Assembly (NCBI GenBank): GCA_041946735.1
Contig: JBHGAY010000003.1
Location: 32,001 to 96,000, forward strand
Direction of reading: 5' to 3'
Length of the DNA: 64,000 nucleotides
Origin: Candidatus Eiseniibacteriota bacterium
Lineage (GTDB): Bacteria > Eisenbacteria > RBG-16-71-46 > CAIMUX01 > VGJL01
Position numbers and translations under genes: made by a program. Numbering within the stretch: position 1 is the stretch's first letter; every line of letters begins with the position of its first letter. Shown piece after piece: positions 1,755 through 58,722 of this stretch. The notes below the pieces were generated by a model. That model had not been told where the DNA came from, searched no databases, and saw only the letters and a program-made list of their open reading frames with translations.

Positions 1755-1768
1755 GCTTCGTTCTCCTA

Positions 1769-4650: not shown

Positions 4651-4694
4651 GTCGAGTCGTTCCGCCATCGGTTCCTCTTCCCCGAGGGGTCGCC

Positions 4695-16015: not shown

Positions 16016-16183
16016 CTTGAAGACTCCTTTCTTCCGCCAGTCGCACATCACGACTGGACGACCGCGGTGGAGGCTACGCTCGTCGGCGGGCGCGTTCAAG
16101 CATCGAACCGGTTGATGGGCGGCGAACGAATCGAGGTGTCGTCGGCGAGAGGCTGGCGCGAAAAGCGGAGCGCGCCTTCCGTC

Positions 16184-42043: not shown

Positions 42044-42322
42044 ACCGGTGGGAACCGGTCCGACACTCGCCTGTTCTGCGAGCGATCGTAGCGAAACGCG
42101 TCCGCCTTGAGTGAACGGCAGCTGCGGAGGCTCAGGATGGATCGGGGTGTCGAGTCGTTCGACGAAGCGAGCGACCGAGCGAGCATCGAGAGAGTTCCCG
42201 CCGCCCGGGCCGGTTTCCGGCGTTCGGGCGGCCGTGATATTCTGGCCCCGGGGTTGGAGCATGGTGCGGCTTCTCGCCTCCCGGCCGTGATCGATGGACG
42301 GATCGCCGAGGCGCGGAGGAAC

Positions 42323-43606
42323 ATGGCAGCGACCGTACCGGAGTACAGAGCCCATCCGCTCCTGGATCCGGCGCTCTCCGAATCGGATCCGACCGCCTTT
42401 CGGATGCTCTACAAGGATTACCTGGGCATCCTGCAAGGCTCGGAACGCTACAACGATCTCCTGAACAAGATGCTCCATCCTCCCGGAGAGGAACACCGTC
42501 TCGAGTCCAATCTCGAGACCGGCCGATATTACCTGACCGAAGCGATGCAGTACATCAAGGACCTCCTCGGACTTCTTCCGGAGGAGGCGCGACAGCTCGT
42601 CGAGCCGGTCCCCGAGGTGTGGAACTGCACCGACGTCCTCGAGCTGCTCTCGATGATCTTCGCGAACACCGACCGGCGCACGCGATTCGAGGCGCAGCGC
42701 AAGCTGTACCTCACGAAGCTCTTCTTCGACGTCGACCACTGCCGCGAGGTCCAGAACGGCGTCGCGCACAAGCGCTTCTTCGAGTCGCTGCTCGAGCGCC
42801 ATCTCTTCAACGGCGTCGTGCACCAGCGAAAGCTCGAGGTCTGCTTCGGGATCGGCCAGGACGGCGTGTCGATCGACTATTGGATCGGAAAGGGAGGCGG
42901 AGCGGGCCCCGGAGAGGAGTGCTGGACCTTCGATCTTCAAGAGATCCAGATGCTCCACCAGGGCTGGCCGATCCGCCTGCACGTCTATTTCTACTCGTGC
43001 CGTTTCAAGAAGGAGATCATTCCGTTCCAGTACCAGCGCGGAGGGACGCACTACTCGATCCTCCCGACGGAGATCTGGAGCGGCCTCTCCCACCGCCGCA
43101 ACGGATCGATCGTCAGCAAGATGATCCGCAAGGGGGTGAACGATCCCCGACAGATCCAGGACTTGATCGGAGCGATGTTCATCGTCCAGAACCTCGTCGA
43201 GGTCGAACACCTCAAGGAGATCCTCGTCAACCTCTTCGGCGGTCCGTTCAGAATGAAGAACATCGTCGACACACTGAGCGACAAGGGGCAGAAGGTCCTG
43301 CTCAATCCGTACGCCGGATTCGGGTACGAGGTGTTCAAGTGCGAGCTGGACGTCCTCTACCGTCCGCCGCATGCCCCCGATTCACTCCCTTACTTCTTCC
43401 CGGTCGAGCTGCAGATCTATACGCTCGAAACCTACCTGCGGACGATCCATACCGAGCATTACGCGAGCCATCAAGCCTTGAAGAAGCGCCAGTTCCTGAT
43501 CGGCCTCGTGCCCTATCTGTTCCCCGTCTCCGTCTATGGAGAGCTGCCGGTGCGGCTGTGCATGGAGGAAGGGACGCGGGTCGGCTCCAACGGCGGGGGC
43601 CGCTGA
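42323..43606 (+). CDS. Uncharacterised protein with a RelA/SpoT synthetase-like (nucleotidyltransferase) C-terminal half
   Basis: GGAGG RBS; SIVSKMIRK, IQDLIG, GY, PVELQIYT, SH..LKKRQ in synthetase motif order; strong coding-like composition. Confidence 0.65.
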   Translation: MAATVPEYRAHPLLDPALSESDPTAFRMLYKDYLGILQGSERYNDLLNKMLHPPGEEHRLESNLETGRYYLTEAMQYIKDLLGLLPEEARQLVEPVPEVWNCTDVLELLSMIFANTDRRTRFEAQRKLYLTKLFFDVDHCREVQNGVAHKRFFESLLERHLFNGVVHQRKLEVCFGIGQDGVSIDYWIGKGGGAGPGEECWTFDLQEIQMLHQGWPIRLHVYFYSCRFKKEIIPFQYQRGGTHYSILPTEIWSGLSHRRNGSIVSKMIRKGVNDPRQIQDLIGAMFIVQNLVEVEHLKEILVNLFGGPFRMKNIVDTLSDKGQKVLLNPYAGFGYEVFKCELDVLYRPPHAPDSLPYFFPVELQIYTLETYLRTIHTEHYASHQALKKRQFLIGLVPYLFPVSVYGELPVRLCMEEGTRVGSNGGGR

Positions 43607-44562: not shown

Positions 44563-46272
44563 TCAGCCCTCCGCCTCGCGCCGCTCGACGAGCAGCAGCG
44601 TGATGTCGTCGTTGGCGGGGGAGTCGGCGAGAAACGCGCGGACGTCGGCAAGGAGCGACTCGCCAACGCCGTCGATCTCGGCTTCTCTCTCGCGTGCGCG
44701 CTTCAGCTGCTCCTCCACCCGTTCGTCGCCGTAGAACTCCTCGCGCGCGTACGCCTCCGGGATGCCGTCCGACATGATCGAGAGGAGCGCCCCCGGCGGG
44801 ATCTCCGTGGAGACCTGCTCGAAGGTCGAGTCGGCGAGCAGGCCGAGTGGCGGACCGGTCGTGTCGAGAGTGCACGTCGAACCGTCCTGTAGCAGGAGAA
44901 GGGGAGGGACGTGTCCGGCGTTGACGTAAGTGAGCCGGTGCGAGCGGGGATCCAGCCTGCCGAAGAAGAGCGTCACGAAGGAATGTTCCGCCGAGGACGC
45001 GAGAAGCTGCCGGTGAAGCCTTGCGATCACCTGCTCGGGCGGCAGCGACTCCTCCGCGAGCAGACGAAGAGCGGCCATCACGTGCGCCATCAGAATCGCG
45101 GCCCCGACCCCTTTGCCGCTGACATCCCCGAGCGCGATGCCTAGCGATCCATCCTCGAATAGGAAGGCGTCGTAGAGGTCGCCGCCGACCTCGTAGCAGG
45201 GGTGCAGCGTCGCGTGCAGAGCGTAGCCGGGCAGGACGGGGAGCGCCGAGGGGAGCAGCTCGCGCTGGATCAGCGCCGCCGCCTGCATCTGCTGCTCCAT
45301 GCGCTGCTTCTCGCGCTCCGCCTCCAGCAGCCGGGCATGCGTGATCTTCATCGCCGTCAGGTTCGCCAGGAGGGTGAAGGAGCGAAGCTGGTCCTGGTCG
45401 TAGCGGAAGAGCGGGTCACTCGCGTCGGCGTACAGCAGGCCCAGAACCCGCTCGTTGTCGAAGAGGGGAGCGACGAGCGCCGATCGCACCGCCTGGAGGA
45501 CGATGCTCTCCTTCCCGGCGAAGCGAGGATCCTGCTGGGCGTCGGAGAGGAGGAACGACCGGCGGTCCTCGAGGACGGAGCGGACGAGGGTGCTGCTGAG
45601 CAACAGGCCTTCCGCCGTGGTCCCGGCGGGCCGCACGGCGCGAACGATCGGCTCCTTCCCCTCCTGCTCGGAGAGGAGCAGGAGGATCCGCCTCGCCGGG
45701 ATCGCCCGCTCGGCAACGTCGAGGACCGAATCGAACACCTGGTCGATCGGAAGCGGCCGCATGAGAAGATCGCCCGCGTCGATGATAGCGCGCAGCAGGC
45801 GGTCGGTGGCGCGCGCGTGCGCCTCCGGCTCCATCCTGCCGGCGCCCGCCTCCTCCTTGCCGCGGAACTCCTCCCATCGCATTGCGGCCGGGGACACGTA
45901 GGTGAGGAACGACTCGGCGGGCCGAGCGATCATCGGGCCGCCGCCGTCGCTGCGCGCCGCGCGGTCAGCGCCCTCCTCCCCCCGGTCCAACTCGAGACGC
46001 AGCTCCACCGCGCCGATGCGGATCCGGTCGCCCGGGCGTAACTGGACGCCCCCCTCGATCTTTCGGTCGTTCACCCAGGTGCCGTTGCGACTCCCCAGGT
46101 CGCGGATGACGATCTCGTCGCCTTGCACCTGCAGTTCCGCGTGCCGCGCGGACACCCGGGGATCCGCGAGGCGAACGTCGCTTTCCGCGGCGCGCCCCAC
46201 GTGGTGCATTCCGTCCTCGCCTGGGAGGCACGCCACCTCCTCGCCCTGCCGGCCCCGCAAGATCCAGCGCAT
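44563..46272 (-). CDS. FHA-GAF-PP2C (SpoIIE/RsbU-like) serine phosphatase
   Basis: FHA VGR...VSARHA...DLGSRNGTWVN; GAF; VGGDLYD, GDVSGKG, YVNAGH, SDGIPE, DDITL; GGAGG RBS. Confidence 0.92.
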   Translation of the reverse strand: MRWILRGRQGEEVACLPGEDGMHHVGRAAESDVRLADPRVSARHAELQVQGDEIVIRDLGSRNGTWVNDRKIEGGVQLRPGDRIRIGAVELRLELDRGEEGADRAARSDGGGPMIARPAESFLTYVSPAAMRWEEFRGKEEAGAGRMEPEAHARATDRLLRAIIDAGDLLMRPLPIDQVFDSVLDVAERAIPARRILLLLSEQEGKEPIVRAVRPAGTTAEGLLLSSTLVRSVLEDRRSFLLSDAQQDPRFAGKESIVLQAVRSALVAPLFDNERVLGLLYADASDPLFRYDQDQLRSFTLLANLTAMKITHARLLEAEREKQRMEQQMQAAALIQRELLPSALPVLPGYALHATLHPCYEVGGDLYDAFLFEDGSLGIALGDVSGKGVGAAILMAHVMAALRLLAEESLPPEQVIARLHRQLLASSAEHSFVTLFFGRLDPRSHRLTYVNAGHVPPLLLLQDGSTCTLDTTGPPLGLLADSTFEQVSTEIPPGALLSIMSDGIPEAYAREEFYGDERVEEQLKRAREREAEIDGVGESLLADVRAFLADSPANDDITLLLVERREAEG

Positions 46273-46473
46273 CGGTCCTCCTCCGTCGAAGGTTCGTGGG
46301 GGGGATGGTACGCCACTCGATCGGCTTGTGGGCGGGTCTCCGGTGAACCCGTCCCGGCGCCTTTGCAGGCATTTCCCGAACCGGACGGCCGCGACCACGC
46401 AGGCGCTTCCCGCCCAGGAAAAGCGAGCGTCGCGTGCCTATTTGCAGTGACGCGGGCGCGAGGCGACTCGCGA

Positions 46474-48588
46474 CTACGACTCGGAATCGCGCGGGCCCGA
46501 GTCACGCGGTGGGCTCGAGTCATGCTCCGCGCTCGAATCGCGCCCGCCTGCCGGACGTCCGCCGCCCGCACGATCCCCGGCACCGCCCGCACGATCCTCC
46601 GGCGCGCGCTCCCGCGGCTCAGCCGCGGCGGCCGGCGGGAACTCGATCGCCCCCGCTTCGGCAAGCGTGCCGTGCTTGTGGATCGCGTGCTCGACCGGAG
46701 TCTTCCCGTCGAGGAAGGCGAGGTTCAGCGGTTGCACCTCGGGGTGGAAGATCACGTAGAAAAAGTGCCAGACGAGAATTGCGAGGAAGGCGAGCCACGC
46801 TTCGTAGTAATGGACGACTTCCGAGACCTCGAAGATCCAGCCCGGCAGATAGCGCGTGAAGAAGGTCGGGAACCAGAGGACGAAGCCGGTAAACACCATC
46901 ACGGCCGTCCCCCAGATGAGCGCGAGATACTCCGCCTTCTCCGTGTAGTCGTATCGAGCGAAGAGCGGCCGCTCCTTCGTCTTGTGCAGGTGGAAGGCCA
47001 GGTTCTGCTTGAAGTCGCGCACGTCCCGGAGCTTCGGGAGGATGGCGACAACCTCCTGCCGCCCGCGCCTGGTAAACAGGAAGAAGCCGACCTGCGCCAG
47101 CGCCGAGGCGATCATGACGACCGCCGCTCCCCGGTGGACGATCCCGCGCACCGCCTCGGACATTCCGAGCTTCTCTGTGATGCGCACCCATCCCGAGTCG
47201 GCGAACTTCAGCGCGAACCCGGTGAAGACGAGGATGAAGAAGGACGCCAGCAGCAGGAAGTGCTGCACCGTCTCGAAGGGGGTGAAGCGGCGAACCATCG
47301 CCTGCCGCTTCTCGCGCCTCCGCTTCTCGACGACGTAGTAGATCCAGACGATCGCGTTGTGCGCGAGCATTCCTCCGATCACGACGATCAGGAGGATGAT
47401 GTAGATCTCGCGCGCGATCTGCCGCGGAGTCTTCGGCCCCGGCAGGCCCTGCCCTGAGATCGTCGGGTGGACATTGATCGACGCGAAGCGTTCCGTCGCG
47501 TCGGGATGGCAGGTGCCGCAAGTCTGCTGCAGGTTGGCCGGATTGACCGTCGAGCGCGGGTCGGAACTGGCGAAGATGTTGTGGATGCCGTGGCAGGAGG
47601 CGCAGTTCGCGACGTCGAGCGCCCCCTTGCGCGTCGCGAGCCCGTGATAGGTCTGCTGATAGGAGGCGATCCTCGTCGCATCGAATCCGTAACGCTGCCC
47701 GAGGATCTGCGAAGCGTGGCAACGCGTGCAGGTCGTGCGCGCGATGTTCGCCGGGAACACGGTCGATCGCGGATCGGTCGGCGGCAGGATCTCGTGCTCT
47801 CCATGGCAGTCGATGCAGACGGGGGAGTCGCTGACGCCGCTCATCGCCGCCTGCCCGTGGATCGACTCGAGATAGACCGACGCGATCTCTCCGTGGCAGT
47901 TGCCGCAGAGGCTTGGAATGTTCGTCCGGGCCACCGTGCTCGCGGGATTCGTGGGACGCAACATCTCGTGAGCGGGATGGCAGAAGCTGCAGGTCGGCGC
48001 CGCCGGATTGTTGTCGATGAGAAGCGCCCGGCCGTGAACGCTTCGCTGGTACGCCTCGACCGGCGCTTCGATCCGGATGTCGTACTTCTTCACCAGCTCG
48101 GGGTTCGCGTGGCAGCGCGCGCAGGTCCGGACGACCCGCATCGGATGCACCCAGGACGAGTCGTTGCCGGCCGGGAGGATGCCGTGGCTGCCGTGGCAAT
48201 CGGCGCAGCGCGGCGCGTCCGGGTTTCCCTGGGCGACCGCCTCACCGTGGATGCTCCCCGCGAACGTCGCCTGGACGTCCCCGTGGCACATGCCGCAGTC
48301 CACCGGCGCGAGGTCGTCCGCATGGGGAATCTCGGTCGCGTCGGCATGGCAGTCCGTGCAGCCGAATCCGGCGTGGACCGAGTTGGCGAGCTGCTGCTCG
48401 TCGACGCCGAGACTCACCTCCCGGCCGTCCGGCAACGTCTTCGTCAGGCTCGGATCGGAATGGCAGGCCAGACACTCCTCGTTCGTGACGCCCCACGCCA
48501 CTCCCGCCACGAGGAAGGAGACGGCGATGAGCAAGCCGGCGAGCCGGAGTGCGGCGCTTCGATGCGGAGAGATGCGGGACCGCGACAA
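46474..48588 (-). CDS. Multiheme cytochrome c (11 CxxCH) fused to a cytochrome b membrane domain, CbcL-like quinol:cytochrome oxidoreductase
   Basis: Signal peptide; CLACH, CTDCH, CGMCH, CADCH, CARCH, CSFCH, CGNCH, CIDCH, CTRCH, CASCH, CGTCH; C-terminal TMs with QH, VHR, EKAEYLALIWG, VHYYEAWLA..WHF. Confidence 0.88.
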   Translation of the reverse strand: MSRSRISPHRSAALRLAGLLIAVSFLVAGVAWGVTNEECLACHSDPSLTKTLPDGREVSLGVDEQQLANSVHAGFGCTDCHADATEIPHADDLAPVDCGMCHGDVQATFAGSIHGEAVAQGNPDAPRCADCHGSHGILPAGNDSSWVHPMRVVRTCARCHANPELVKKYDIRIEAPVEAYQRSVHGRALLIDNNPAAPTCSFCHPAHEMLRPTNPASTVARTNIPSLCGNCHGEIASVYLESIHGQAAMSGVSDSPVCIDCHGEHEILPPTDPRSTVFPANIARTTCTRCHASQILGQRYGFDATRIASYQQTYHGLATRKGALDVANCASCHGIHNIFASSDPRSTVNPANLQQTCGTCHPDATERFASINVHPTISGQGLPGPKTPRQIAREIYIILLIVVIGGMLAHNAIVWIYYVVEKRRREKRQAMVRRFTPFETVQHFLLLASFFILVFTGFALKFADSGWVRITEKLGMSEAVRGIVHRGAAVVMIASALAQVGFFLFTRRGRQEVVAILPKLRDVRDFKQNLAFHLHKTKERPLFARYDYTEKAEYLALIWGTAVMVFTGFVLWFPTFFTRYLPGWIFEVSEVVHYYEAWLAFLAILVWHFFYVIFHPEVQPLNLAFLDGKTPVEHAIHKHGTLAEAGAIEFPPAAAAEPRERAPEDRAGGAGDRAGGGRPAGGRDSSAEHDSSPPRDSGPRDSES

Positions 48589-48643
48589 CGCTTCGTTCCT
48601 CTCGTTGAAAAATGGTTTCGGTCGCCTGACCGCCCCTGGTCCC

Positions 48644-50071
48644 TTACGGGAAGAGGGTCTTCAGGACTTCGGGATTCTCCTCCTCCATCGCCAGGAGGCT
48701 GTGACAGGTCGAGCAGTCCTGGGAGATCGTAGCGCCGTCCTTCGAGACGTGCTCCTCGTCGTGACAGCGAAAGCAGCCGACGAAATCGGTATGGCCGATA
48801 TGGTCGGGATAGGTTCCCCACTCGACCTTCATCTCAGGGAAGACGTACGTCGACCAGATGCCGGCGGCGGCGGCCGCGGCGGTTTCGATCTTCTTTGCGT
48901 CGGCTTCGAAGAGAGCCGGGTAGTTCGTCCGGTAGAAGTCGACGAGACGGGAGCGGATGGAGTTCACGGCCGTCTCGCGGTCGGGGTAGCTCTCGCCGAT
49001 CGCCGCCAGCGCCTCGCGCTTCAGGTAGGGGAGGTCGTTCGGGAGGCTCCCGTCGTCCATCGCGAGGTCGAGGGCGCGCGCCGGCAGCCGGTAGATGTGC
49101 GTGGGACGGTTGTGGCAGTCGATGCAGTCCATCAGTCGGACCGGCCTCGCCGCGATCGAGTCGGGGACCTCTCCCTGCACGTACTCGGCCGACGTGCCGT
49201 CGCGCCGCTCCACCTTCACCCAGGGGATCTTCTCCCGCGACTCGTCGGAGCGGTAGTAGACGCGGTTGTAGATGTGCGAGTGGATGCCGCGGCCGACTCC
49301 CTCCTCGGGCGTCCCGCCGCCGATCTTCAGCAGCAGGACGGTCTTCAGCGGCGTGTTCGTCGAGTCCTCCTGGTAGTGCGTGATCACCTGGACCTTGTCG
49401 CCGTGGAACTTCTCCGGCCAGTGGCATTGCTCGCACGTGTCCCGCGAGGGGCGGAGGTTCTCGATCGGCGTTTCGATCGGCGTCGGCCACGTCCCGAACG
49501 CCTGCTTGAACACCTGGCGCGTCCCGGAGAGCTTGCTCCTCACGAACCAGGACGCCCCGCGCCCGATGTGGCAGTCGACGCAACGCACCCGGGAATGCGG
49601 CGAGATCTGGTAGACGGTGTACTCCGGCCGCATGACCGGATGGCAGGTCGCGCCACAGAAGGAGACCGAGTCCATGTACTCGATCCCCTTGTAGGAGGCG
49701 ATCGCGAGGATCGTCAGGTTCAGGGCCGTGAGCATTCCGATCAGCAGCAGGCGGTTGCGCACGTCCGGACGGTTCAGGTCGTAGACCGGGAAGGCTTCCA
49801 ACGCCTCGGGATGGCGGGCGGCCCGGCGCCGGTCCAGCCACGAGCCGAAAGGGATCATCAGCAGACCGAGGATGAAGAGCGCCGGCAGGATGAGGAAGGT
49901 CACCATCCCGAGATAGGGATTCGCCTGGAAACCGAGCGCCGAGGAGACGAGGAGCACCAGCAGCAGCACACCGGAGAGGGTGGTCAGGTTGACGCCGATG
50001 AAGCCGAGAGGGTGCTTGGTCGTTCTCAGGAAGAAGTCACGGACGGCACGAAACAAAGAAGACATCGACAT
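48644..50071 (-). CDS. NapC/NirT-family membrane multiheme cytochrome, ImcH-like (6 heme motifs)
   Basis: 3 N-terminal TMs (NPYLG), FCGATCH (CX3CH), CVDCHIG, CEQCHWP, CIDCHNRPTH, CFRCH, CSTCH; FPEMKVEWG. Confidence 0.88.
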   Translation of the reverse strand: MSMSSLFRAVRDFFLRTTKHPLGFIGVNLTTLSGVLLLVLLVSSALGFQANPYLGMVTFLILPALFILGLLMIPFGSWLDRRRAARHPEALEAFPVYDLNRPDVRNRLLLIGMLTALNLTILAIASYKGIEYMDSVSFCGATCHPVMRPEYTVYQISPHSRVRCVDCHIGRGASWFVRSKLSGTRQVFKQAFGTWPTPIETPIENLRPSRDTCEQCHWPEKFHGDKVQVITHYQEDSTNTPLKTVLLLKIGGGTPEEGVGRGIHSHIYNRVYYRSDESREKIPWVKVERRDGTSAEYVQGEVPDSIAARPVRLMDCIDCHNRPTHIYRLPARALDLAMDDGSLPNDLPYLKREALAAIGESYPDRETAVNSIRSRLVDFYRTNYPALFEADAKKIETAAAAAAGIWSTYVFPEMKVEWGTYPDHIGHTDFVGCFRCHDEEHVSKDGATISQDCSTCHSLLAMEEENPEVLKTLFP

Positions 50072-50268
50072 CTCTCCTGCGGATCGGATTCCGCGGCCGG
50101 TCCTCGATCCCCCTTCGCCATTCCGATCTCGCCTCGAGGCATGCCGCCGTCCGATCGGACGAGGCCGCCTCGAGGCGCGCCGGTCGCTTCGCTGTCGTAT
50201 CCGCTGGATCGGTCGCCCGATCGCTGATCACTCGGTCACTTGCGATCGGTCCACCGGAGCGGATCGAT

Positions 50269-50340
50269 CGCCGCCGGCCGTCCCGCCGGCCGTGTGGCCG
50301 GCCGTCTTGCCGGCCTTCTCGCCAGCCGACTCACGGCCGA
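50269..50340. repeat. Degenerate 12 bp-period GCCGGCCG tandem tract
   Basis: gccggccgtccc/gccggccgtgtg/gccggccgtctt/gccggccttctc/gccagccgactc. Confidence 0.7.
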
Positions 50341-50361
50341 TTCCGCCCTTGTCAGGCCCTC

Positions 50362-51402
50362 TCAGTCCTCCGTTCGAGGAGCGTGGCAGTAGGTGCAGAA
50401 ACCCTCGGTCCCCGCGCTCTTCGTATGGCAGTCGTAGCAGTAGTAGGCGTCGTCGTCGTGCCAGGGGCCCTTGACGTCGTAGTCCTCGAAGTCGCTCGGG
50501 TGGATGCTCCGATCGTTGCCCCGCCCCGGCCGCGCGTCCCGGTGACAGTCGACGCAGACCGGGTCTGCCTGGTCGTGGCACGCGGCGCAGTAGGTGATGT
50601 CGCGCCTCGCCTCGAGCGCGTGGCGGTTCGCCCCGCCCGCGAACGAGACCCAGTTCTCGTCATGGTTCGTCGGCTTCACCCCCACCGACGCGTGGCAGTC
50701 GTTGCAGAACTGCTCGGCCTGGTGGCACGAGGTGCAGTCCGTCTCGTGCTTCCGCGCGTCCTGCGCGTGCGTGAACTCGTAGTTCCGCGGGTGGGACGGG
50801 AAGAGGACGTTCTCCCCCTGATGGCACTCGCTGCACTGCTCGCTCTCGCGATGGCACGACTCGCACTCCTCCGCCATCCCGCGAGCCTTGAACTGGTGGG
50901 TATGCCGGAAGTCGGGGCCGTGATCGAGCGGCCGCAGCCCGATCGTGTTCTCATGGCATGTCTCGCATTCCTGCGAGGCCTGCTTGCCATCGTGGCACTC
51001 GAAGCAGACCGGATGCCCGATCTGCCCTCGATCGGTCTTGCGAAGCGACGGATCGACCAGGGCGCCGTGGCAGCGAGCGCAGTCGACGCCCATGCCGAGA
51101 TGCTGCGAGTGCGAGAAGGCGGGAATCCGTGACGGCACCGCCTGGATCTTCGTCCAGCCCCAAAGCTCGAGATCGGACGCCTCGTGGCACCCCTGGCACG
51201 TCTCGGGAGTCGGAAGGAGGTTGTCCTTGCCCGTCTGGCTTTCGGTCGCGTTCGGATGGCATGTCGCGCAGTCCGCTCCGACCTCCTGATGCTTCTCATG
51301 CGAGAACCGAGTGCGTGCGGCGCCGCTGCCGGACAGGAGGACGGCGAGCGTGGCGACCGCGAGCACCGCAACCGCCCCACGAATCCAATCCTTGCCTCTC
51401 AT
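50362..51402 (-). CDS. Periplasmic 13-heme cytochrome c (c3/c7-like N-terminus), porin-associated
   Basis: Sec signal; FSH..H motifs; CATCH, CQGCH, CARCH, CFECH, CETCH, CESCH, CSECH, CTSCH, CNDCH, CAACH, CVDCH, CYDCH, CTYCH. Confidence 0.9.
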   Translation of the reverse strand: MRGKDWIRGAVAVLAVATLAVLLSGSGAARTRFSHEKHQEVGADCATCHPNATESQTGKDNLLPTPETCQGCHEASDLELWGWTKIQAVPSRIPAFSHSQHLGMGVDCARCHGALVDPSLRKTDRGQIGHPVCFECHDGKQASQECETCHENTIGLRPLDHGPDFRHTHQFKARGMAEECESCHRESEQCSECHQGENVLFPSHPRNYEFTHAQDARKHETDCTSCHQAEQFCNDCHASVGVKPTNHDENWVSFAGGANRHALEARRDITYCAACHDQADPVCVDCHRDARPGRGNDRSIHPSDFEDYDVKGPWHDDDAYYCYDCHTKSAGTEGFCTYCHAPRTED

Positions 51403-51417
51403 CCCCGGTTCTCCTTC

Positions 51418-52791
51418 CTACAGGCCCAGGCGGAAGCGCTGGTCGATGCGGGCGAGCAGGCGAATGTCCTGCTCGAGATCCCAGTTGGTCAGTCCCTCCA
51501 CCTGGAGAACGATGCGGGTGTCGCGGAGGGCTTGATAGGTCGCCGCGAAGATCGTGGTCGAGGCGTCGTTGTCCTCGTCCTCACGATCGCCGTAGTCGTA
51601 CGTCTCGTAGCCGAAGGAGCCGTCGAGCCGGAGCCTGTCTCCGATCTGCTGCGAGCCGGCGAGCACGAGGCCGGTGCGATCGCCGCCGAAACCGGACTCG
51701 AAGCGGGCGCCGATCTGATACGCGCCGCGCCCGAGGACCAGCCGGATCGACTTCGCGCGGTCCACGTCCGAGCCGCTCGACAGCCCGTCCCCCACGTGAG
51801 GCCGCCGGAAGTCGGTCCGCAGGAAATCCGCGCTGATGCGGTACGGCCCGAAGAGGTTGATGCCGCCGCCTCCGCGCAGCTCGCTGACCTCGCGCGTATC
51901 CCAGAAGGCGAAGAAGGAAGTTGCGGGAAGCTGCGGCGTCCGCCGGTTGTACTCGCCCCAGAGCCGCAGGCCGTTGTTCCGGTTCAGGTACTCGACTCCG
52001 GCCGCCTGGCCGTACGTCTCATCGAGGAGGAAGTCGTGCCGGAACTCGGTCCAGATCCGCAGCTGCCTCTGCACCCATAGGGTGGCTTTGGCCCCGATGC
52101 GGCTGTTCTCGTCCTCGTCGTGCCGGCGCGTCAGGGCGTAGCTCACGCCGACCTCCGGCGAGAAGCTCGTCGCGAGGTTCGGTCGCAGCCTCAGCTCGCC
52201 GCCGATTCGCGCCGACTCGTCCGGCTCGTCGAAGCGCCACTGCTCGCGAGCGTCGGCGCCCAGAGTCCCGCCGAAGATGGCGAGGGTGCCCCAGCCCGGC
52301 CGCTCGATCCGCGCGTAGGCGCCGTCGACCGTGCCGGTGCCGATCCCTGCCGGCACCCAGACGCGGCCGAGACGCAGGTCGTAGCGGAGCGTGGACTCTC
52401 CGGAGGCCGGGATCGTCCGGTACTGCAGGAAACCGTGATAGAGGCGGGTGCGCGTGTCCCCGATGCTCTGGTTGGTGACGTCGTTGCGCGCGGTCAAGAA
52501 GCCGTGGAAGGTCAGCTCCGGCGCTCCAAGCTCCAAGACGTCGAAGCGGAGCCTCTCGAAGACGCGGGTCCGGTTCTCCAGATCGGTGCCGAACGGCTCG
52601 CTCGACGCCTCCTGGACGTAGGCGGCGGTCGAGCTCGTTCCGCGGATCGTAACCGCGCCGCACGGCGCGGCGCTCGCCGCCAGCCCGATGCTTGCCGCCA
52701 GCGCGGCGCAAAGCGCCGGCGCCGCCCAGGCGAAGCGACCGGCCGACCCGATTCGCGGCAGAGCCCGGCGGGCGCTCTTCCTCGTGCTCAT
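51418..52791 (-). CDS. Putative outer-membrane beta-barrel (cytochrome conduit porin)
   Basis: Signal peptide, no hydrophobic TM helices in the mature part, many alternating strands (LRLGR, DGAYARI, IGGELRL, LDGSFGY, LLARIDQRF); sits between cytochrome genes. Confidence 0.75.
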   Translation of the reverse strand: MSTRKSARRALPRIGSAGRFAWAAPALCAALAASIGLAASAAPCGAVTIRGTSSTAAYVQEASSEPFGTDLENRTRVFERLRFDVLELGAPELTFHGFLTARNDVTNQSIGDTRTRLYHGFLQYRTIPASGESTLRYDLRLGRVWVPAGIGTGTVDGAYARIERPGWGTLAIFGGTLGADAREQWRFDEPDESARIGGELRLRPNLATSFSPEVGVSYALTRRHDEDENSRIGAKATLWVQRQLRIWTEFRHDFLLDETYGQAAGVEYLNRNNGLRLWGEYNRRTPQLPATSFFAFWDTREVSELRGGGGINLFGPYRISADFLRTDFRRPHVGDGLSSGSDVDRAKSIRLVLGRGAYQIGARFESGFGGDRTGLVLAGSQQIGDRLRLDGSFGYETYDYGDREDEDNDASTTIFAATYQALRDTRIVLQVEGLTNWDLEQDIRLLARIDQRFRLGL

Positions 52792-53414
52792 CGGTCCCCT
52801 CCCTCGCTCAGGCCGCCGCCGCCCGGCGCGACGTGGATCCGCCTCGCCTTGCCGGCCAGCTCCCCGAGGCTTCGCTCGCTCGCGTTGCCGCCGTTGCCCT
52901 CGGCGTCCTTGTGACATCCGTAGCAGGTGTAATCGAGCGTGATGCCGTAGCCGTCCTTTGCCGCCCGCTGTCCATCGGTCGATTCGAACATCGTTTCCCG
53001 CCCCACCGGTTCGACGTGGATCTTCAGGATGTGCGTGCGCCGGTCCGCGCGGTACGGCTGAACGATCGTCGAGACATATGTGGCGGCGGGCATATGGCAG
53101 GCGACGCAGATCTTGATCGGGTGATCGACGGCGGCCGCCTGCTCGCTATGGCACGTCTCACAGGAGAACCGCTGCTGGGTGCCGTTCGGGTCGAGATGGC
53201 AGTCGAGGCAGCGCTGCACCGGATGATGGCCGACCGCCAGCTCGTCGGCGATCGGTCCGGGCGCGAGGAAGAGGTAGGGCGCGTCCTCCGAGGCAAGAGG
53301 ACGGTGGACGATCTGCACGGGACGGAAGTCGTCGCGGTCCTCCGCGCACGACGGCGCGAGGAGCAGGACCGCCGCGAGCAAGAGCAGGACAGGCGACAGG
53401 GATCTCCAGCGCAT
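52788..53414 (-). CDS. Tetraheme cytochrome c lipoprotein
   Basis: Lipobox-like LLAPSC; CLDCH, CETCH, CVACHMP, CYGCH; its stop overlaps the porin ATG (ATGA). Confidence 0.82.
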   Translation of the reverse strand: MRWRSLSPVLLLLAAVLLLAPSCAEDRDDFRPVQIVHRPLASEDAPYLFLAPGPIADELAVGHHPVQRCLDCHLDPNGTQQRFSCETCHSEQAAAVDHPIKICVACHMPAATYVSTIVQPYRADRRTHILKIHVEPVGRETMFESTDGQRAAKDGYGITLDYTCYGCHKDAEGNGGNASERSLGELAGKARRIHVAPGGGGLSEGGDR

Positions 53415-53548
53415 GTCGAAACCCCTTTCGATGAATCGATCTCGATCCGGCATCGGCGAGCGATTGTGTGTCGCCCGGCCGCTCCGGCACAAGCAGGCAA
53501 TCGGTCCCGATGCCTGGGACCTTCCGGTTTCTCGAGACTTTCCGGCTG

Positions 53549-54142
53549 CTAGCGTTTTTTCGGGGAAGGACGAGCGTGGGCGATCTTCTTCACCATCGCG
53601 GAATAGTCGAACGACGGAGAGGCGCCCGCCTCCCGCCAGCATTCCCGCGGGAGCGGCTCCGGCGTGTGGCATGCGGCGCAAACCGCCTCGGTCGGCTCCA
53701 GCATCCCCAGGCCTAGAGCCGCCTTCCTGTCCTTTCCGTGGACGAACTTGTACTCGCTGCCGGGACCGTGGCACGCCTCGCACTGCACGTTGCGCAGGAT
53801 CTCCGCCGTCTTGCCCGCCACGACCGGGCGTCCGAAGCCGGTCGTGTGGCACGCAAGGCAGCGCTCGTCCTTCTGGCTTGCCGGCGGGAGGGAGAGGAAA
53901 GCGCGCCCGTGCGGCGAGGACGTCCAGGTCTCGAACACGCTGCCCCGCGCCTTGCCGGCATGGCAGCTCTTGCACCCCTCCGCTCCGATGTAGCGCGGGC
54001 TGGGGTCGGGGTTGGGGTTGGGGCTGGGGTTGGCCGCCCGAGTCTGGGCGTCCGAGCTGGCGAAAGAAAGAGCCAGCGCGGCGATCACGATCGCCGCCGC
54101 GATCGCAGCGGGAAGGACGAGGGCCGAAAGCCTCGACGTCAC
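53549..54142 (-). CDS. Exported tetraheme cytochrome c554-like protein
   Basis: Signal/TM, PNPNPDP linker, YIGAEGCKSCH..W..SPH.RA, CLACHTTG, VQCEACHGPGS, CAACH; GTG 54142 with GGAGG. Confidence 0.85.
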   Translation of the reverse strand: MTSRLSALVLPAAIAAAIVIAALALSFASSDAQTRAANPSPNPNPDPSPRYIGAEGCKSCHAGKARGSVFETWTSSPHGRAFLSLPPASQKDERCLACHTTGFGRPVVAGKTAEILRNVQCEACHGPGSEYKFVHGKDRKAALGLGMLEPTEAVCAACHTPEPLPRECWREAGASPSFDYSAMVKKIAHARPSPKKR

Positions 54143-54233
54143 GTCCACCCTCCTTGCAGCGGAAGCCGTCGCCGCCTGCCTCCGTCTCGGGATCGATCGC
54201 GAGGGCGAGCGGAACCGGCCGCTGGGCAGAGAG

Positions 54234-54262
54234 AAGATCCGCCCCGGCCGGGCGGCAGTCAA
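54234..54262 (-). promoter_or_regulatory. Possible internal sigma70 promoter in the cytochrome cluster
   Basis: Minus-strand TTGACT-N17-GATCTT just downstream of the hairpin. Confidence 0.4.
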
Positions 54263-54273
54263 GACCGCCCGCA

Positions 54274-54307
54274 GAAAGGGGGGGAACGGAGGACCCGTTC
54301 CCCCCCC
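54274..54307 (-). terminator. Intrinsic terminator-like hairpin after the first cytochrome gene
   Basis: Minus-strand GGGGGGGAACGG-GTCCT-CCGTTCCCCCCC followed by TTTC. Confidence 0.65.
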
Positions 54308-54335
54308 GATCGCCGAAGACGCCCCCCACGGCTCC

Positions 54336-55994
54336 CTACTGGACCAGGATCTCAGCCTTGTCGAGGGCGAGCCCGTTCAGCGCGAGGATGCTTTGCTGCA
54401 GGAGCTGGATCGCGTAGGTGGCGTTGTGCACCCCCTTCGACTTGTCCTGCGCGACGAACATCATGTTGTAGGCGCTCGCGCGCATCTGGACCGTCGTGAG
54501 GTCCGGATTGCCCACCGCCTCCTCCATCCCGAGAGCGCCGCCCTCGTCGTAGGCGGCCTGCAGCTCGGCGCGTGCCTCCTCGGACGGCGCGTGCTCGATG
54601 ATCGTCTCCGCGAGCGTGTCGATCAGACCGGCTACCTCGTCCTGCACTCCCTCCACGGTCCCGTCGCCGTCGTAGTCCGCCTTCGCCTCGATGTCCTCGA
54701 AGGAATCGATCGAGCCGTGGCACGGCTGGCAAGCCTCGACGATCGGGCGGAACCCATGTCCCGTGTACCCCGGATTGCCCGGGGACCAGGGGATGTGGTG
54801 GTTGTGGCAGTTCACGCAGCCATCCTGGATGTTGATGTGGTGGCTCGTCGCGAAATCGAAGGAAGGACTGACGTTCTCGTACGCGCCGACGCCCGCCAGC
54901 ATGTCGCCCTGCACGCTCGGATGCGGACCGAAGTGCGCCGTCCCGTTCTGCACCTGGTCCTCGGCATTCGAAGGACTCCTACGGCCGTTGTGGCAGGCGA
55001 TGCAAAGCCGGCCCGTCCCAGCGTCCGGATGCAGTCCATTGGGGAGAGCGACGTCGTTGACCGCGTCGCGCAGATAGGAGAGGTTGCCGCTACCGTGCGG
55101 ATCGTGGCAGACGACGCAGTCGAGAGCGAGCGTGTCGGCCGGAGCGGAGGTGTCGGTGTAGCCGGCCGGGTCGTTGAGATAGTCCTTGGCGGCGATGCCG
55201 TTGTGGCACTTCTTGCAGGCTCCCCGGGTGGCCGCCTCCTCGACGATCCCCGCATGAGGTGATCCTTGCCACTCGCTGTACGTCGGGTGGTGCTCCCCCT
55301 CGTGACAGGTTCCGCAGAGAGCGGAGTCGAGCGGCTTGGGAAGCTTCGGGTCTCCGCCGCCCGCGACGTGCACGCTGCCCGGGCCATGGCAGCACTCGCA
55401 CTGCACGTCCGCCAGGCGATCGATGCGTAGCTCGTCGTAACCGCCGTTGTTCACGGCCGGATTGAAGCCGACCGTATGGCAGCTGAGGCAGGCGTTGTTC
55501 TGGTCCTGGCCATCGGCAACGAGCGTTCCGAGCGCGTCGGCGTGTCCGCTGACCTCCCAGGAGTCGTGGATGCCCTCGTGGCAGGTGTTGCACGTCTTGT
55601 CCCCGACATAGGAGGGAGAGACCGCGGGGACGTAGGTAGAGACGACGACCGGCAGAGTGCTGACCGTCGCCTTGTCGCCGTCGTGCACGACCACCTGGAT
55701 CTCGTAGGTTCCTTCCACGTCAGGCGCGACCCAGACCACCGACGGGCTGTCGGATTGCTGGAAGGAGCCTGCGGGCGCGGACCACTGATAGGTGTAGTCG
55801 CCGGTGGGCGTCACGCTCGCCGTCAGCTGGACGAGCGATCCGTTCGTCGGGATCTCCGGGTCGGCGGTCATCTGGACCTCCAACTCGGTCCCGGGAACGT
55901 TGTTGTTGTTGTCGTTGTCGTCGTCACTACATCCCAGCGCGATCAGCGCCACAGCGACGGCGCCCAGGAGCAGGATGGATCGGACGCGTCCCAT
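54336..55994 (-). CDS. Nonaheme cytochrome c lipoprotein with N-terminal PKD/Ig-like domain (OmcB-like surface cytochrome)
   Basis: Lipobox IALGC, D/N-rich linker, YTYQWSA..VVWVAP..GTY; CNTCH, CLSCH, CECCH, CGTCH, CKKCH, CVVCH, CIACH, CVNCH, CQPCH; C-terminal helical DKSKGVHN. Confidence 0.88.
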   Translation of the reverse strand: MGRVRSILLLGAVAVALIALGCSDDDNDNNNNVPGTELEVQMTADPEIPTNGSLVQLTASVTPTGDYTYQWSAPAGSFQQSDSPSVVWVAPDVEGTYEIQVVVHDGDKATVSTLPVVVSTYVPAVSPSYVGDKTCNTCHEGIHDSWEVSGHADALGTLVADGQDQNNACLSCHTVGFNPAVNNGGYDELRIDRLADVQCECCHGPGSVHVAGGGDPKLPKPLDSALCGTCHEGEHHPTYSEWQGSPHAGIVEEAATRGACKKCHNGIAAKDYLNDPAGYTDTSAPADTLALDCVVCHDPHGSGNLSYLRDAVNDVALPNGLHPDAGTGRLCIACHNGRRSPSNAEDQVQNGTAHFGPHPSVQGDMLAGVGAYENVSPSFDFATSHHINIQDGCVNCHNHHIPWSPGNPGYTGHGFRPIVEACQPCHGSIDSFEDIEAKADYDGDGTVEGVQDEVAGLIDTLAETIIEHAPSEEARAELQAAYDEGGALGMEEAVGNPDLTTVQMRASAYNMMFVAQDKSKGVHNATYAIQLLQQSILALNGLALDKAEILVQ

Positions 55995-56390
55995 GCGGAC
56001 CTCCTCTTCCTCTTCCCAGAAAGGCCTTCCCCGGAACCCCGGATGTGCAGCGGCCGCCTGCCCCTTCCCCCGCTCGAATCGTCCTCTCCATGGAGGCGTG
56101 GATGCGGGCGGGCGTCGGGCGAGCCGTAAGAATCTCTATCGCTTTCCTCGTCCTGTGAGCAAGGAAAGTTTATGCAACCGAACCGCAGTTCTCGTTCATC
56201 CGTACGGTAGGACGGCTAATGGTGAAAAACTGCGTCGCATGTCGAACCGCGGGCGGCCGGTTCGAATGAATTCGCAATTCGTGACGTAAAGTGGGTTCGA
56301 GGCTGTCCGGGGGCCGGCAGCGAAGGGGCGGCCCGGGGCCACGGAGCGGCGGCGTGGCGCGCCGTCCTCGGACCGTGCGGGCAAGAGAGA

Positions 56391-56434
56391 ACGGGAGGGC
56401 GAGGGGGGCTGTGGCCCTTCCTCCGCCCTCCCGT
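56391..56434 (-). terminator. Stem-loop downstream of the BNR/FlgD gene
   Basis: ACGGGAGGGCG...CGCCCTCCCGT, followed on the minus strand by TCTCTCTT. Confidence 0.55.
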
Positions 56435-56466
56435 CACTGGAAGGCTGAAGTCAGAGGGTGAAGAAC

Positions 56467-58722
56467 CTAGTGGAGCAGGACGAGCTTCACGGACGCGCCG
56501 GGTCCGCCATGCGTGCTGAGGCGGGCGAAGTAGACCCCGCTCTCGACCGCCCGGCCCGAGTCGTCCTTGCCGGCCCACTCGCGCTCCACGCTGGCGCCCG
56601 CAGAGAACGTACCTGCCGCCAGAGTTGCGATCCGGCGTCCCGCGAGATCGTGGATCGTCAACACCGCATTGCCGTCGGAGGGCAGCTGGAACGCAACGAG
56701 CGGACGGTCCCCGACCGGGCGGATCGCCCGCAGGAGCCCCGGAGCGGAGGGGACGGCCCCAGGCTGCGATTCGCCGTCACCGATCGAAGCCGGGTCGTGC
56801 CGCGTCGCCTCGATGATGCTGCTGCCTCCGGCCCCGACGAAGAATCCGTTCGGCCGCGCCTCCACCGTCTCGGCCCAGCTCGACAAGGGAAGGTCGAGAG
56901 GCTCCCATGTCTGCCCGCCGTCGCCGGTCACATAGACGTAGCCGAGCGCGAAGCTCCGCATCGCAACGCCGTGGAGCGCGTCGGAGAAGCCGATGCGGCG
57001 AACCGGCCCCTGGAGGACGGGGGCCCAGGTCGTCCCGCCGTTGGTCGTGCGATAGATGCCTGCGCCGTCGGACTCTGACCCGACGACCGCCGTTTGCGCA
57101 TCGAACCAGACCATCGTCCGCACGAACGACGGGAGGCCGGCGGTCGGCATTGCCGTCCATGTCGTCCCGCCGTTCGTCGTGCGGTAGAGATAGGGGGCGA
57201 ACTGCGAGCCGCCGCCCGCGTACCCGTTCTGTTCGTCGAGGAACGCGATCGTCCAGATGTAGCTCGCTGGAAGGCCGGTCATGCACTGCGCCCAGGTCGT
57301 CCCTCCGTCGGTCGAGCGGAAGATCAGGCCGGTCGTCGACTGTCCGTAAGTCGTGCAGTACGCGCGCGAGGCGCTGGGGGCCACGATCTGGAGCGGCGAC
57401 ACCCCGTTGGGCGCGCTGTTCGGGAGCGAGCGGGCCGACCAGCTATCGCCGCCGTCGGTCGTCCGCCAGATCGAGCTGGGAGGTTGGGTGCCTCCGTTGC
57501 CTCCCGCGTAGCCGAGCGCGTCGTCGACGAACTCGATGTCGTTCAAGAACATAATCGGCGGCGTGTTCGACGCTTCCGACCAGGTCCGTCCTTCGTCCTC
57601 CGATCGATGCCAGCGGTAGTAGGGATTGCCGGGAGGGGTGGAGCCGGCGAAGACGCGTCCTCCCGGTGTGAAGCCGAAGGCGGAGATCACGACGCGCGGA
57701 CCGTCGCCCGCGTAGTAGGTGGCGTTCTGCCAGCTCTGGCCGTTGTCAGTGGACCGGTGCAGATCGCCAAACGTGCTGCAGACGATCAGGTCTCCGTTCG
57801 AGAGCCTCTCGAAGTCGGGGTAGCCGTTCGTGTCGGGCTCGTCCAGGAGCATCTGCCAGTGCGCTCCGCCGTCGGTCGACTCGAAGAACTTCGCCCCTTC
57901 GAGGTCGATCGCCAGGTAGAGGTGCTGCGCAGTGACCGGAAGGAGCTGGCACTGGTAAACGAGCAAGAGCGGAACGGAGCTTTGGGTCCAGCTCGCGCCG
58001 CCGTTCGTCGTCGCGTAGGTCTGGAAGTCCGCGAGGATCCAGCCATGGAGCTGGTCGGCCGCGAACACCACCTCGCCATAGAAGTCCCCCTCAGGAACGC
58101 CCGGGATCGTCTGCCAGGTTGTTCCGCCGTTCGTCGTTTCGCGGGCGACGAGGTCCCCGACGACGTATCCGTGGGTGTCCGTGAGCCAGAACTGCTCCTC
58201 GATCGTCGCGTCGCTCGGCGGATTGCGGAGGCTCCAGGTGGCGCCGTCGTCGGTCGATCGAACGATCTCGCCATGCTCTCCGGCGGCCGACAGGATCGAG
58301 CCGCCGACTCGCTTGAGGTCCTTCAGTGTGCGGGTGGAGGGATTGACGACCGGAGTCCAGCTCGCGCCGCCATCGGTCGAGCGAAAGATACCCGGACTCG
58401 AGCCGATCGCGAGCAACTGGCCCGGGCCGAGGACCATCACGTCGAACAGGTCGGCGTCGAGGTCGTCGCAATCGGCCCGGAGCTGCCAGGACGCCCCGCC
58501 ATCGGTCGTCGCGACGACCGAGCCGCCCAGCCCGACAGCGTAGCCGGTCTGGGCGTCCTCGAACGTGACCGCTTTCAGCTCTTCCCCCTGGGGTGTCGGC
58601 AATCTCCAGTCGAAGCTGTAGTCGGTGACGGCGAACGCCGCGGGGGGGAGGAGCGCAAGCGCCCCGAGCAGGAGCGACGGGAATCGCAGACTCTCTTTCA
58701 TCCTCATCCTTTCGTTCGACAT
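56467..58722 (-). CDS. Secreted YCF48/BNR-repeat beta-propeller protein with C-terminal FlgD-Ig-like domain
   Basis: Signal peptide; many TTDGG.SW/TTNGGTTW boxes; C-terminal LTIHDLAGRRIATL...W.GKDDSGRAVESGVYFARL. Confidence 0.85.
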   Translation of the reverse strand: MSNERMRMKESLRFPSLLLGALALLPPAAFAVTDYSFDWRLPTPQGEELKAVTFEDAQTGYAVGLGGSVVATTDGGASWQLRADCDDLDADLFDVMVLGPGQLLAIGSSPGIFRSTDGGASWTPVVNPSTRTLKDLKRVGGSILSAAGEHGEIVRSTDDGATWSLRNPPSDATIEEQFWLTDTHGYVVGDLVARETTNGGTTWQTIPGVPEGDFYGEVVFAADQLHGWILADFQTYATTNGGASWTQSSVPLLLVYQCQLLPVTAQHLYLAIDLEGAKFFESTDGGAHWQMLLDEPDTNGYPDFERLSNGDLIVCSTFGDLHRSTDNGQSWQNATYYAGDGPRVVISAFGFTPGGRVFAGSTPPGNPYYRWHRSEDEGRTWSEASNTPPIMFLNDIEFVDDALGYAGGNGGTQPPSSIWRTTDGGDSWSARSLPNSAPNGVSPLQIVAPSASRAYCTTYGQSTTGLIFRSTDGGTTWAQCMTGLPASYIWTIAFLDEQNGYAGGGSQFAPYLYRTTNGGTTWTAMPTAGLPSFVRTMVWFDAQTAVVGSESDGAGIYRTTNGGTTWAPVLQGPVRRIGFSDALHGVAMRSFALGYVYVTGDGGQTWEPLDLPLSSWAETVEARPNGFFVGAGGSSIIEATRHDPASIGDGESQPGAVPSAPGLLRAIRPVGDRPLVAFQLPSDGNAVLTIHDLAGRRIATLAAGTFSAGASVEREWAGKDDSGRAVESGVYFARLSTHGGPGASVKLVLLH

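Follow-up and report, generated by a model that had tools for sequence, protein, structure and literature searches.

Does one operon of an uncultured bacterium encode the whole route by which electrons could travel from the inner membrane's quinone pool to the cell surface? The question is raised by seven genes, six for multihaem cytochromes and one for a beta-barrel, at positions 46474-55994 of a 64-kb stretch of DNA from Candidatus Eisenbacteria, the whole of which is referred to here as the window. An original prediction, made from the sequence alone, took these genes for a distinct module of extracellular electron transfer in which every layer of the cell envelope is served. It is suggested here that the operon is probably an outward conduit from quinol to the surface, used by Candidatus Eisenbacteria for extracellular electron transfer. 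All of the envelope layers are indeed encoded in one conserved cluster; however, every part can be assigned to a family that has already been described in connection with extracellular electron transfer, and the operon is a new arrangement of known kinds and not a distinct system.

The seven open reading frames (ORFs), numbered g1 to g7 in order of transcription, all lie on the minus strand and follow one another head to tail. They carry 46 CxxCH motifs and one atypical CGATCH in g6, which is a CX3CH and not a CX4CH motif, giving the 47 haem motifs originally counted. A six-frame count across the window also yields 46 CxxCH motifs, every one of them inside g1-g7 and none outside the locus or on the plus strand; the concentration is therefore not due to chance. 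The G+C content is 63-70% throughout the window. Spacing between the genes is short: one pair overlaps by 4 bases, others stand 15, 55, about 75-190 and 134 bp apart, and only the 290 bp between g5 and g6 depart from this. The Pfam and NCBIfam calls fit the gene-by-gene domain list of the original prediction, and a Pfam scan of g1-g7 and 31 flanking ORFs bears out its statement that no catalytic molybdo-, flavo- or NiFe subunit is present. A scan of positions 46000-56600 for promoters and terminators was uninformative, returning 0 promoter-like and 4 terminator-like sites where 0.5 and 4.3 were expected.

At the inner membrane, the first putative quinol oxidase is g6 (48644-50071, minus strand; 475 aa), an ImcH-like cytochrome with five CxxCH motifs besides the CGATCH. 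A hydropathy scan gives it three N-terminal transmembrane helices (residues 24-42, 55-73 and 108-126); the CX3CH motif follows at 139, and the CxxCH motifs stand at 164, 213, 316, 433 and 453. Residues 109-198 form a NapC/NirT-like region (PF03264, E 5.4e-9, 36.5 bits against a cut-off of 24.1). In the survey of Zhong and Shi, ImcH homologues are defined by three transmembrane motifs, an adjoining atypical CX3CH and five to nine CX2CH motifs, with an identity to Geobacter ImcH of 31-49% or more (PMC6295460). The predicted protein has this printed layout, with three transmembrane helices, the CX3CH next to the third, five CX2CH motifs and the NapC/NirT-like stretch. Supplement 3 of the same survey lists ImcH of G. 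sulfurreducens (GSU3259, 507 aa) with helices at 13-35, 45-67 and 100-122 and haem sites at 132, 156, 205, 311, 428, 448 and 486 (PMC6295460). Compared by layout, the haem sites of g6 are collinear with the first six of these at near-equal positions, and the NapC/NirT-like stretch is shared; Geobacter ImcH has seven sites, whereas g6 has six. More than 548 relatives of g6 were found in the genome contigs searched, and among the best 80, which were kept, the nearest belong to Acidobacteriota, Gammaproteobacteria and Myxococcota, with 44-50% identity to the ImcH-like genes of Acidobacteriota, Anaeromyxobacter and Woeseiaceae. A further scan seeded with an ImcH-like gene from a 'delta proteobacterium' (L102) matched Anaeromyxobacteraceae and others but no Geobacter, and the PpcA model NF043011 scored below cut-off in all five cases tried.

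The second putative quinol oxidase is g7 (46474-48588, minus strand; 704 aa), in which a signal segment is followed by 11 CxxCH motifs between residues 39 and 361 and then by a cytochrome b domain (Ni_hydr_CYTB, PF01292; 54.1 bits against a cut-off of 30.1, residues 434-619). A crude hydropathy scan places five hydrophobic helices at 391-615, besides the signal segment. His443, His485, His593 and His608 lie in or at these helices and would be the haem ligands, placed as in the dihaem b cytochromes of the FdnI type. Members of the CbcL/MtrH/MtoC family combine a periplasmic domain of 3-23 CX2CH motifs with a b domain of the HydC/FdnI type and, in most cases, six transmembrane motifs (PMC6295460), and the architecture predicted for g7 is that of this family. 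Geobacter CbcL (GSU0274) has the same fusion of a multihaem c domain to a dihaem b domain, with nine c-haems, 619 aa and six transmembrane helices (PMC6295460) as against 11 c-haems and 704 aa in g7.

In Geobacter imcH and cbcL lie at separate loci, whereas here their counterparts are neighbours. This pairing is not peculiar to Eisenbacteria: among the 77 loci from other lineages that lie nearest to g6 (L026-L102, from the best 80 relatives), 46 have a CbcL-like gene with a b domain within 500 bp of the ImcH-like gene. Represented among these neighbour loci are Acidobacteriota, Gammaproteobacteria (Woeseiaceae and others) and Anaeromyxobacteraceae, besides further groups; in 37 of the 46 the CbcL-like gene precedes the ImcH-like one on the same strand, opposite to the arrangement in Eisenbacteria. 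Geobacter ImcH and CbcL serve acceptors of differing redox potential (PMC6295460, section 11), and by analogy the presence of both types in one operon suggests that the conduit could be used across a range of acceptor potentials.

How electrons would cross the outer membrane depends on g4 and g5. No Pfam (E<=0.01) or NCBIfam family was found for g4 (51418-52791, minus strand; 457 aa, no CxxCH motif), for which 52791 is the most likely start. Its AlphaFold2 model, built on an alignment of 31 relatives, has a mean predicted local distance difference test score (pLDDT) of 86.1 and a predicted template-modelling score (pTM) of 0.77, and shows 22 strands behind a signal helix at residues 23-40. The leading Foldseek matches in the PDB are all outer-membrane barrels, the top one being the chitoporin 7vu2 (E 2e-9), and include the FimD usher (TMq 0.53). 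From this model g4 can be confidently predicted to be a 22-stranded outer-membrane beta-barrel, as was originally proposed, and it would be the porin of the conduit. A word-indexed search found 32 relatives, all unnamed; a profile search of 1.84 billion representatives returned 587 with E<=1e-3, of which 306 have E<=1e-10; look-alike clusters in a protein atlas, all 'hypothetical', occur in Gemmatimonadota, Myxococcota, Zixibacteria, Calditrichota and Ignavibacteriota; and a cluster look-up of ten distant relatives gave no names.

A single-protein scan of the genome contigs with g4 found nothing, and a profile hidden Markov model made from Eisenbacteria barrels alone does not detect the barrels of Myxococcota. 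A profile of distant members (A2) recovered barrels in metagenome-assembled genomes (MAGs) of Anaeromyxobacter (E 1.1e-20) and Holophagaceae (E 5.4e-29). In the Holophagaceae MAG the barrel is followed by three lipoprotein cytochromes. In the Anaeromyxobacter MAG it is followed by a 12-haem cytochrome of 352 aa, and this protein aligns with g5 (29% identity, 317 aa, E 2e-26) in such a way that the haem motifs coincide. The periplasmic cytochrome g5 itself (50362-51402, minus strand; 346 aa, 13 CxxCH motifs) is matched by c7/c3 repeat families and starts 15 bp downstream of g4. It is also 30-32% identical (E 1e-38 to 3e-41) to 13-haem genes of Myxococcaceae, and in all six cultured Myxococcaceae and Archangiaceae loci compared (Myxococcus, Corallococcus, Pyxidicoccus, Vitiosangium, Cystobacter and Hyalangium; L187, L191, L192, L193, L197 and L198, at about 1450-4690) a barrel lies directly upstream of the g5 homologue. 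Although pairwise BLASTP between g4 and the Anaeromyxobacter-type barrel is weak (E 0.001), profile-profile alignment of g4 with the Myxococcota barrels by hhalign gives a probability of 97.6% and E 3.7e-12 over 389 columns. Shi et al. (2014) described two-gene porin-cytochrome c (Pcc) clusters in three Anaeromyxobacter strains and Candidatus Kuenenia, in which a porin is paired with a periplasmic cytochrome of 338-344 aa and 12 or 14 haems (PMC4245776). Because of the homology to the Myxococcota pairs and the match to this description, g4 and g5 are, on sequence grounds, classed as a Pcc pair of the Anaeromyxobacter type. The pair in the Anaeromyxobacter MAG would, from their description, be the published Adeh/A2cp1 Pcc genes.

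Across 49 homologues of g5, 12 of the haem motifs are invariant and the 13th is kept in at least 90%, while 11 further histidines are also invariant and suggest that the haems are bis-His. An identity with the Mtr, Mto or Pio systems was considered for the pair and rejected: g5 fails the MtrA/DmsE model TIGR03508 (20.4 bits against a cut-off of 192.2), the MtrA chain 6r2q_A is absent from its PDB matches at E<=0.01, and g4 has no match to the Pfam family MtrB_PioB and no MtrB chain among the 50 Foldseek matches listed. The earlier remark that the porin and its 13-haem partner do not look like decahaem MtrA/MtrB thus holds. It had also been proposed to model the porin in complex with its cytochromes. 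For g4 with g5, run without haems, the prediction scored 0.57 against 0.00 for the best of three controls, the runs agreeing in at least 32% of contacts with a partner pLDDT of at least 65; the mark passed here is one that 116 of 157 solved complexes attain, as do 2 of 215 mismatched pairs, and scores of 0.60 or less among the passes came from 18 of the 157 solved complexes and from both of the mismatches. This is weak support for the pairing of the barrel and g5. It is proposed that g5 sits inside the g4 barrel.

The conduits of Geobacter (OmaB-OmbB-OmcB, ExtABCD and ExtEFG) share the logic of this locus, in that a periplasmic multihaem cytochrome (with 12 haems in the case of ExtA and ExtG) is encoded together with a barrel and with one or two lipoprotein cytochromes; their barrels have 18-21 predicted strands (PMC6148476). 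They differ from it in gene order and haem numbers and are not linked to imcH or cbcL. The comparison with them is by description and by NCBIfam models, all of which score far below cut-off (ExtKL 21.6 against 250, ExtS 18.2 against 100, GSU2203 32.9-36.4 against 325). In the Pcc pairs of Anaeromyxobacter (Group IV) and Kuenenia (PMC4245776) a barrel is followed by a cytochrome of 338-352 aa and 12-14 haems, yet they have no adjoining outer-membrane cytochrome or inner-membrane oxidase, whereas g4 and g5 are flanked by lipoprotein cytochromes and by the ImcH-like and CbcL-like genes.

What would meet the acceptor at the outer face is best considered from g1 (54336-55994, minus strand; 552 aa, nine CxxCH motifs), a predicted lipoprotein with an N-terminal PKD/Ig domain ahead of its nine-haem domain. 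Its lipobox (...IALGC) and the acidic linker SDDD that follows are conserved in relatives; the PKD match (PF00801; 26.3 bits) clears its cut-off of 23.5, with haem domains of the c554/c7 type after it. In the AlphaFold2 model (pLDDT 88.6) residues 39-119 form a beta-sandwich. The top Foldseek matches are OcwA (6i5b; E 2.5e-8, template-modelling (TM) score 0.41-0.47), 6qvm (E 4.5e-8) and NrfA (E 5e-4), while MtrC comes 24th with a TM score of 0.12; a phmmer comparison with 6i5b gives E 1.3e-12. The entry 6i5b is identified as OcwA by its Foldseek title and by its listing in PMC6703420. OcwA of Thermincola potens has nine haem motifs, as has g1, and with 6qvm, the S-layer undecahaem cytochrome of Carboxydothermus ferrireducens, it is the best match of g1 in both sequence and fold; the resemblance to OcwA is moderate (18% identity at the TM scores given). 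Both of these proteins have a location at the cell surface. The cell walls to which OcwA and OmhA belong are Gram-positive, whereas g1 would be a diderm's lipoprotein and has a PKD domain in addition. Relatives at E<=1e-8 number 427; of the 120 that were listed, many distant ones bear C-terminal sorting domains of the type IX secretion system (T9SS), which independently suggests that proteins of this family are extracellular. From the lipobox and these T9SS-tailed homologues g1 may be placed at the surface, and we propose it, from its modelled fold, as an OcwA/OmhA-like terminal reductase.

Two smaller cytochromes complete the set. The c554-like tetrahaem protein g2 (53549-54262, minus strand; up to 237 aa, four CxxCH motifs) matches Cytochrome_C554 at E 6e-13 and has a hydrophobic N-terminal segment with no lipobox cysteine. 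Either TTG at 54262 or GTG at 54148 could be its start; the latter, which gives a plain signal peptide, is likelier. These features make it the natural candidate for a periplasmic carrier. The other, g3 (52788-53414, minus strand; 208 aa, four CxxCH motifs), is nested in a longer, spurious ORF that extends to 54329. Its Cys23, behind a hydrophobic leader, aligns with the lipobox cysteines (...SGC and ...GGC) of homologues in two related loci (L015 and L017), and its match to MtrC/MtrF domains II-IV is weak (25.1 bits, below the cut-off of 30). We propose that this tetrahaem lipoprotein is an outer-membrane or surface cytochrome.

Comparison of nine related loci (L015-L022 and L024) of Candidatus Eisenbacteria clarified which of the genes belong together. 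The barrel and the 13-haem gene are adjacent in all nine, g6 comes next after g5 in eight, from at least two families, g7 follows in six, and seven have a g2-like gene upstream of the barrel. Because of these counts the conserved core of the operon is g2-g4-g5-g6-g7, and the lipoprotein cytochromes are variable. In Geobacter conduits too the surface parts vary and the periplasmic parts are conserved (PMC6148476). The barrel occurs in 11 of the 41 genomes of relatives, counting that of the window itself, including five of five other genera of the family and four of 13 genomes of a second family, and at E<=1e-10 it is found in 15 of 151 genomes sampled across the phylum. Two of the related loci have, immediately behind their g7 homologue, a further CbcL-like paralogue, which is about 1000 aa long and bears 19 haem motifs (L019:1492-4425 and L022:1232-4378).

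Taken in order, the proposed path would begin with the oxidation of quinol at the inner membrane by the ImcH-like g6 and the CbcL-like bc-cytochrome g7. Electrons would then cross the periplasm by way of the tetrahaem g2, or pass directly, to the 13-haem g5 held in the 22-strand barrel g4, and the surface lipoproteins g3, with four haems, and g1, with nine haems and a PKD stalk, would reduce insoluble or large acceptors. Candidates for the latter are oxides of Fe(III) and Mn(IV), humic substances or the cell of a partner. Cytochrome c maturation genes, a condition named in the original prediction, are present in the genome: although ResB was not found in it, genes for CcmF-like and CcmC-like proteins and CcmE lie together on contig C41. 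An outward conduit is the most economical explanation of the operon, in which the ImcH/CbcL and Pcc halves, separate in many lineages, are joined.

Several observations weigh against this reading. Full-length g1 is present in only two of the nine related loci, and so is g3, whose own lipobox (APSC) is non-canonical. The seventh haem site of GSU3259 (at 486) is missing from g6, the complex prediction for g4 and g5 passed weakly and left the haems out, and the Geobacter Oma/Omb/Omc and Ext proteins were compared by description and NCBIfam models only. Organisms that are not known to reduce metals, such as Myxococcus and Kuenenia, also have two-gene Pcc pairs, with no surface cytochromes beside them, and the fold of g1 lies in the superfamily of NrfA and the octahaem reductases, so that it may be an enzyme for a soluble substrate. 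The direction of electron flow cannot be read from the sequence. Zhong and Shi report homologues of CbcL/MtrH/MtoC in Fe(II) oxidisers as well as in Fe(III) reducers (PMC6295460), and the genome has four matches to haem-copper oxidase (COX1), to which electrons flowing inward could pass on their way to oxygen.

The last two points bear on the alternative that survives best, namely that the conduit works inward, or is reversible, with Fe(II), a cathode-like mineral or else a syntrophic partner as the electron donor. The path would then lead from g1 and g3 through g5/g4 and g2 to the reduction of quinone by g7, as has been proposed for MtoC, and end at oxygen or nitrate reductases. In favour of such a path, mtoC is itself found in mtoABCD clusters (PMC6295460), and Cyc2-type iron oxidases are reported from some Eisenbacteria MAGs (PMC9769843). 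However, according to the survey of Zhong and Shi ImcH homologues occur only in Fe(III) reducers (PMC6295460), and RuBisCO was not found in this genome, which is 94.8% complete, so that lithoautotrophic iron oxidation is not indicated. The surface lipoprotein cytochromes, elaborate as they are, resemble terminal reductases. On balance inward or reversible flow seems unlikely, though it deserves to be kept in mind.

A different possibility is that the operon is no dedicated wire from end to end and consists of two independent modules lying side by side, the ImcH/CbcL part serving other periplasmic acceptors and the barrel/13-haem pair having an unrelated role. Elsewhere the two parts do occur separately. 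In 76 of the 77 loci outside Eisenbacteria the ImcH-like/CbcL-like pair is without a barrel, and in all six of the Myxococcaceae and Archangiaceae loci the barrel/13-haem pair is solitary, with no further multihaem ORF within 3.5 kb on either side. The one locus of the 77 in which a barrel and a 13-14-haem gene lie within 9 kb of the ImcH-like gene (L057) has them convergent with it. That locus, from an 'uncultured bacterium' of 58% G+C (L057:3720-18417), has c554-like and ImcH-like genes and a 10-haem gene of 900 aa, the three of them convergent with a six-haem gene, a g4-family barrel and a g5 homologue with 14 haems, and is thus a second, differently arranged co-location. The 290-bp gap between g5 and g6 might also be taken for a boundary between modules. 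Against this, all of the genes are co-oriented, and the junction of g5 with g6 recurs in eight of the nine related loci from at least two families, with a gap of about 20 bp in two of them (L015 and L016). We therefore hold two unconnected modules to be improbable. As to the spacer itself (50072-50361), it is G+C-rich and absent from L015 and L016, and no recognisable feature was seen on reading its sequence.

Respiration of nitrite, hydroxylamine, sulfur or selenium oxyanions or some other soluble or small substrate, with g1 as a catalytic reductase of the NrfA/octahaem type and the barrel merely a channel or scaffold, would suit the fold of g1, which matches NrfA and octahaem nitrite reductase after OcwA, the presence of PF02335 on some g1 homologues and the likeness of g6 to NrfH, the quinol dehydrogenase of Nrf (TIGR03153 at 55.5 bits; NrfH structure 2j7a_C at E 6.9e-7), but it is highly improbable, since the CxxCK active-site motif is found in none of g1-g7, a periplasmic reductase has no need of a barrel or of a 13-haem partner, most syntenic relatives lack g1 but keep the barrel, 13-haem and ImcH-like genes, and a separate pair of four- and five-haem genes on contig C2 of the genome is suspected to be Nrf-like.

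To what extent, then, is the outward conduit favoured here something new? Its parts are already known, the ImcH and CbcL families from the survey of Zhong and Shi (PMC6295460), the Anaeromyxobacter-type Pcc pair from Shi et al. (PMC4245776) and the surface cytochromes from their likeness to OcwA and OmhA. Nor does location at a single locus make it distinct, as had first been thought, for clusters reaching from quinone to surface are known in mtoABCD and in mtrH-cymA-mtrABC of Rhodoferax (PMC6295460). These and other mtoABCD or mtrCAB loci with cymA or mtrH (Sideroxydans, Gallionella, Dechloromonas and Rhodoferax) likewise encode in one place a quinone-side cytochrome (MtoC/MtrH, CbcL-like), a periplasmic carrier and a porin-cytochrome pair (PMC6295460). 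Unlike them, the Eisenbacteria operon has a pair that is not MtrA/MtrB, a barrel of 22 predicted strands and an ImcH-like gene; mtrAB and mtoAB are, as that survey has it, never found next to imcH (PMC6295460). What is new is the union of ImcH-like, CbcL-like, Pcc, c554-like and lipoprotein cytochrome genes in one operon, and its occurrence in Candidatus Eisenbacteria. No published description of an operon joining ImcH, CbcL and Pcc was found in the searchable literature, which for extracellular electron transfer in Eisenbacteria holds passing mentions only and no described pathway, and the phylum does not appear in the 2018 phylum table or supplements of Zhong and Shi (PMC6295460). Surveys of the FeGenie type already flag many such clusters in MAGs (bioRxiv 10.1101/2022.03.26.485925).

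The surroundings of the operon have unrelated functions: encoded there are a permease and efflux pumps, a phosphatase of the SpoIIE/FHA/GAF type, and BNR/Ycf48-like proteins that end in FlgD-Ig tails. The phosphatase (44563-46398) and the BNR/Ycf48-like gene (56467-58722) were each considered as parts of the system and set aside, neither having a homologue in the eight related loci searched. The window holds two such large BNR/Sortilin/Ycf48-like proteins (13685-16099 and 56467-58722, minus strand), each ending in FlgD-Ig-like domains, a type of tail that accompanies T9SS sorting domains in g1 relatives. The place of one further neighbour, gene X (42107-43606, plus strand; 499 aa), is less clear. 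It is convergent with the cluster, and homologues of 53-74% identity directly follow the cluster in L015, L016/L023, L018 and L024. No Pfam family was found for it, and the protein atlas gave 'hypothetical' clusters only and a weak RelA_SpoT lead (15% share); whether it is part of the system is uncertain.

The genome (4.89 Mb in 72 contigs) contains a second multihaem cluster on contig C72 (L206:4570-15863), where haem motifs number 6, 25, 16 and 7 in successive cytochrome-like ORFs, together with a peptidyl-prolyl isomerase and a 711-aa protein without a Pfam family. This may be another conduit. DNA nearly identical to 46474-55994 is present in a metagenome run from industrial waste (0.92 of the sampled words) and also in a soil run from which the DNA may derive, the figure for a landfill run being 0.35.

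The operon links three lines of work that have been pursued separately, on ImcH and CbcL in Geobacter, on the little-studied Pcc pairs of Anaeromyxobacter and Myxococcus, and on surface reductases of the OcwA type. Its compact layout is convenient for heterologous testing, and the Myxococcaceae pairs offer cultured hosts of the barrel/13-haem module. One could go further and, as a tentative idea, see in the five conserved genes (c554-like, barrel, 13-haem, ImcH-like and CbcL-like) a self-contained cassette that wires both high- and low-potential quinol oxidases to one outer-membrane conduit. If that were true, a single operon could give another host a complete extracellular respiration, and the reduction of iron, manganese or humic substances by Candidatus Eisenbacteria would have gone unrecognised in soils and wastes. 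These bacteria are uncultured, and possession of both quinol oxidases together with a full outer-membrane conduit would rank the phylum among the likely respirers of metals and humic substances.

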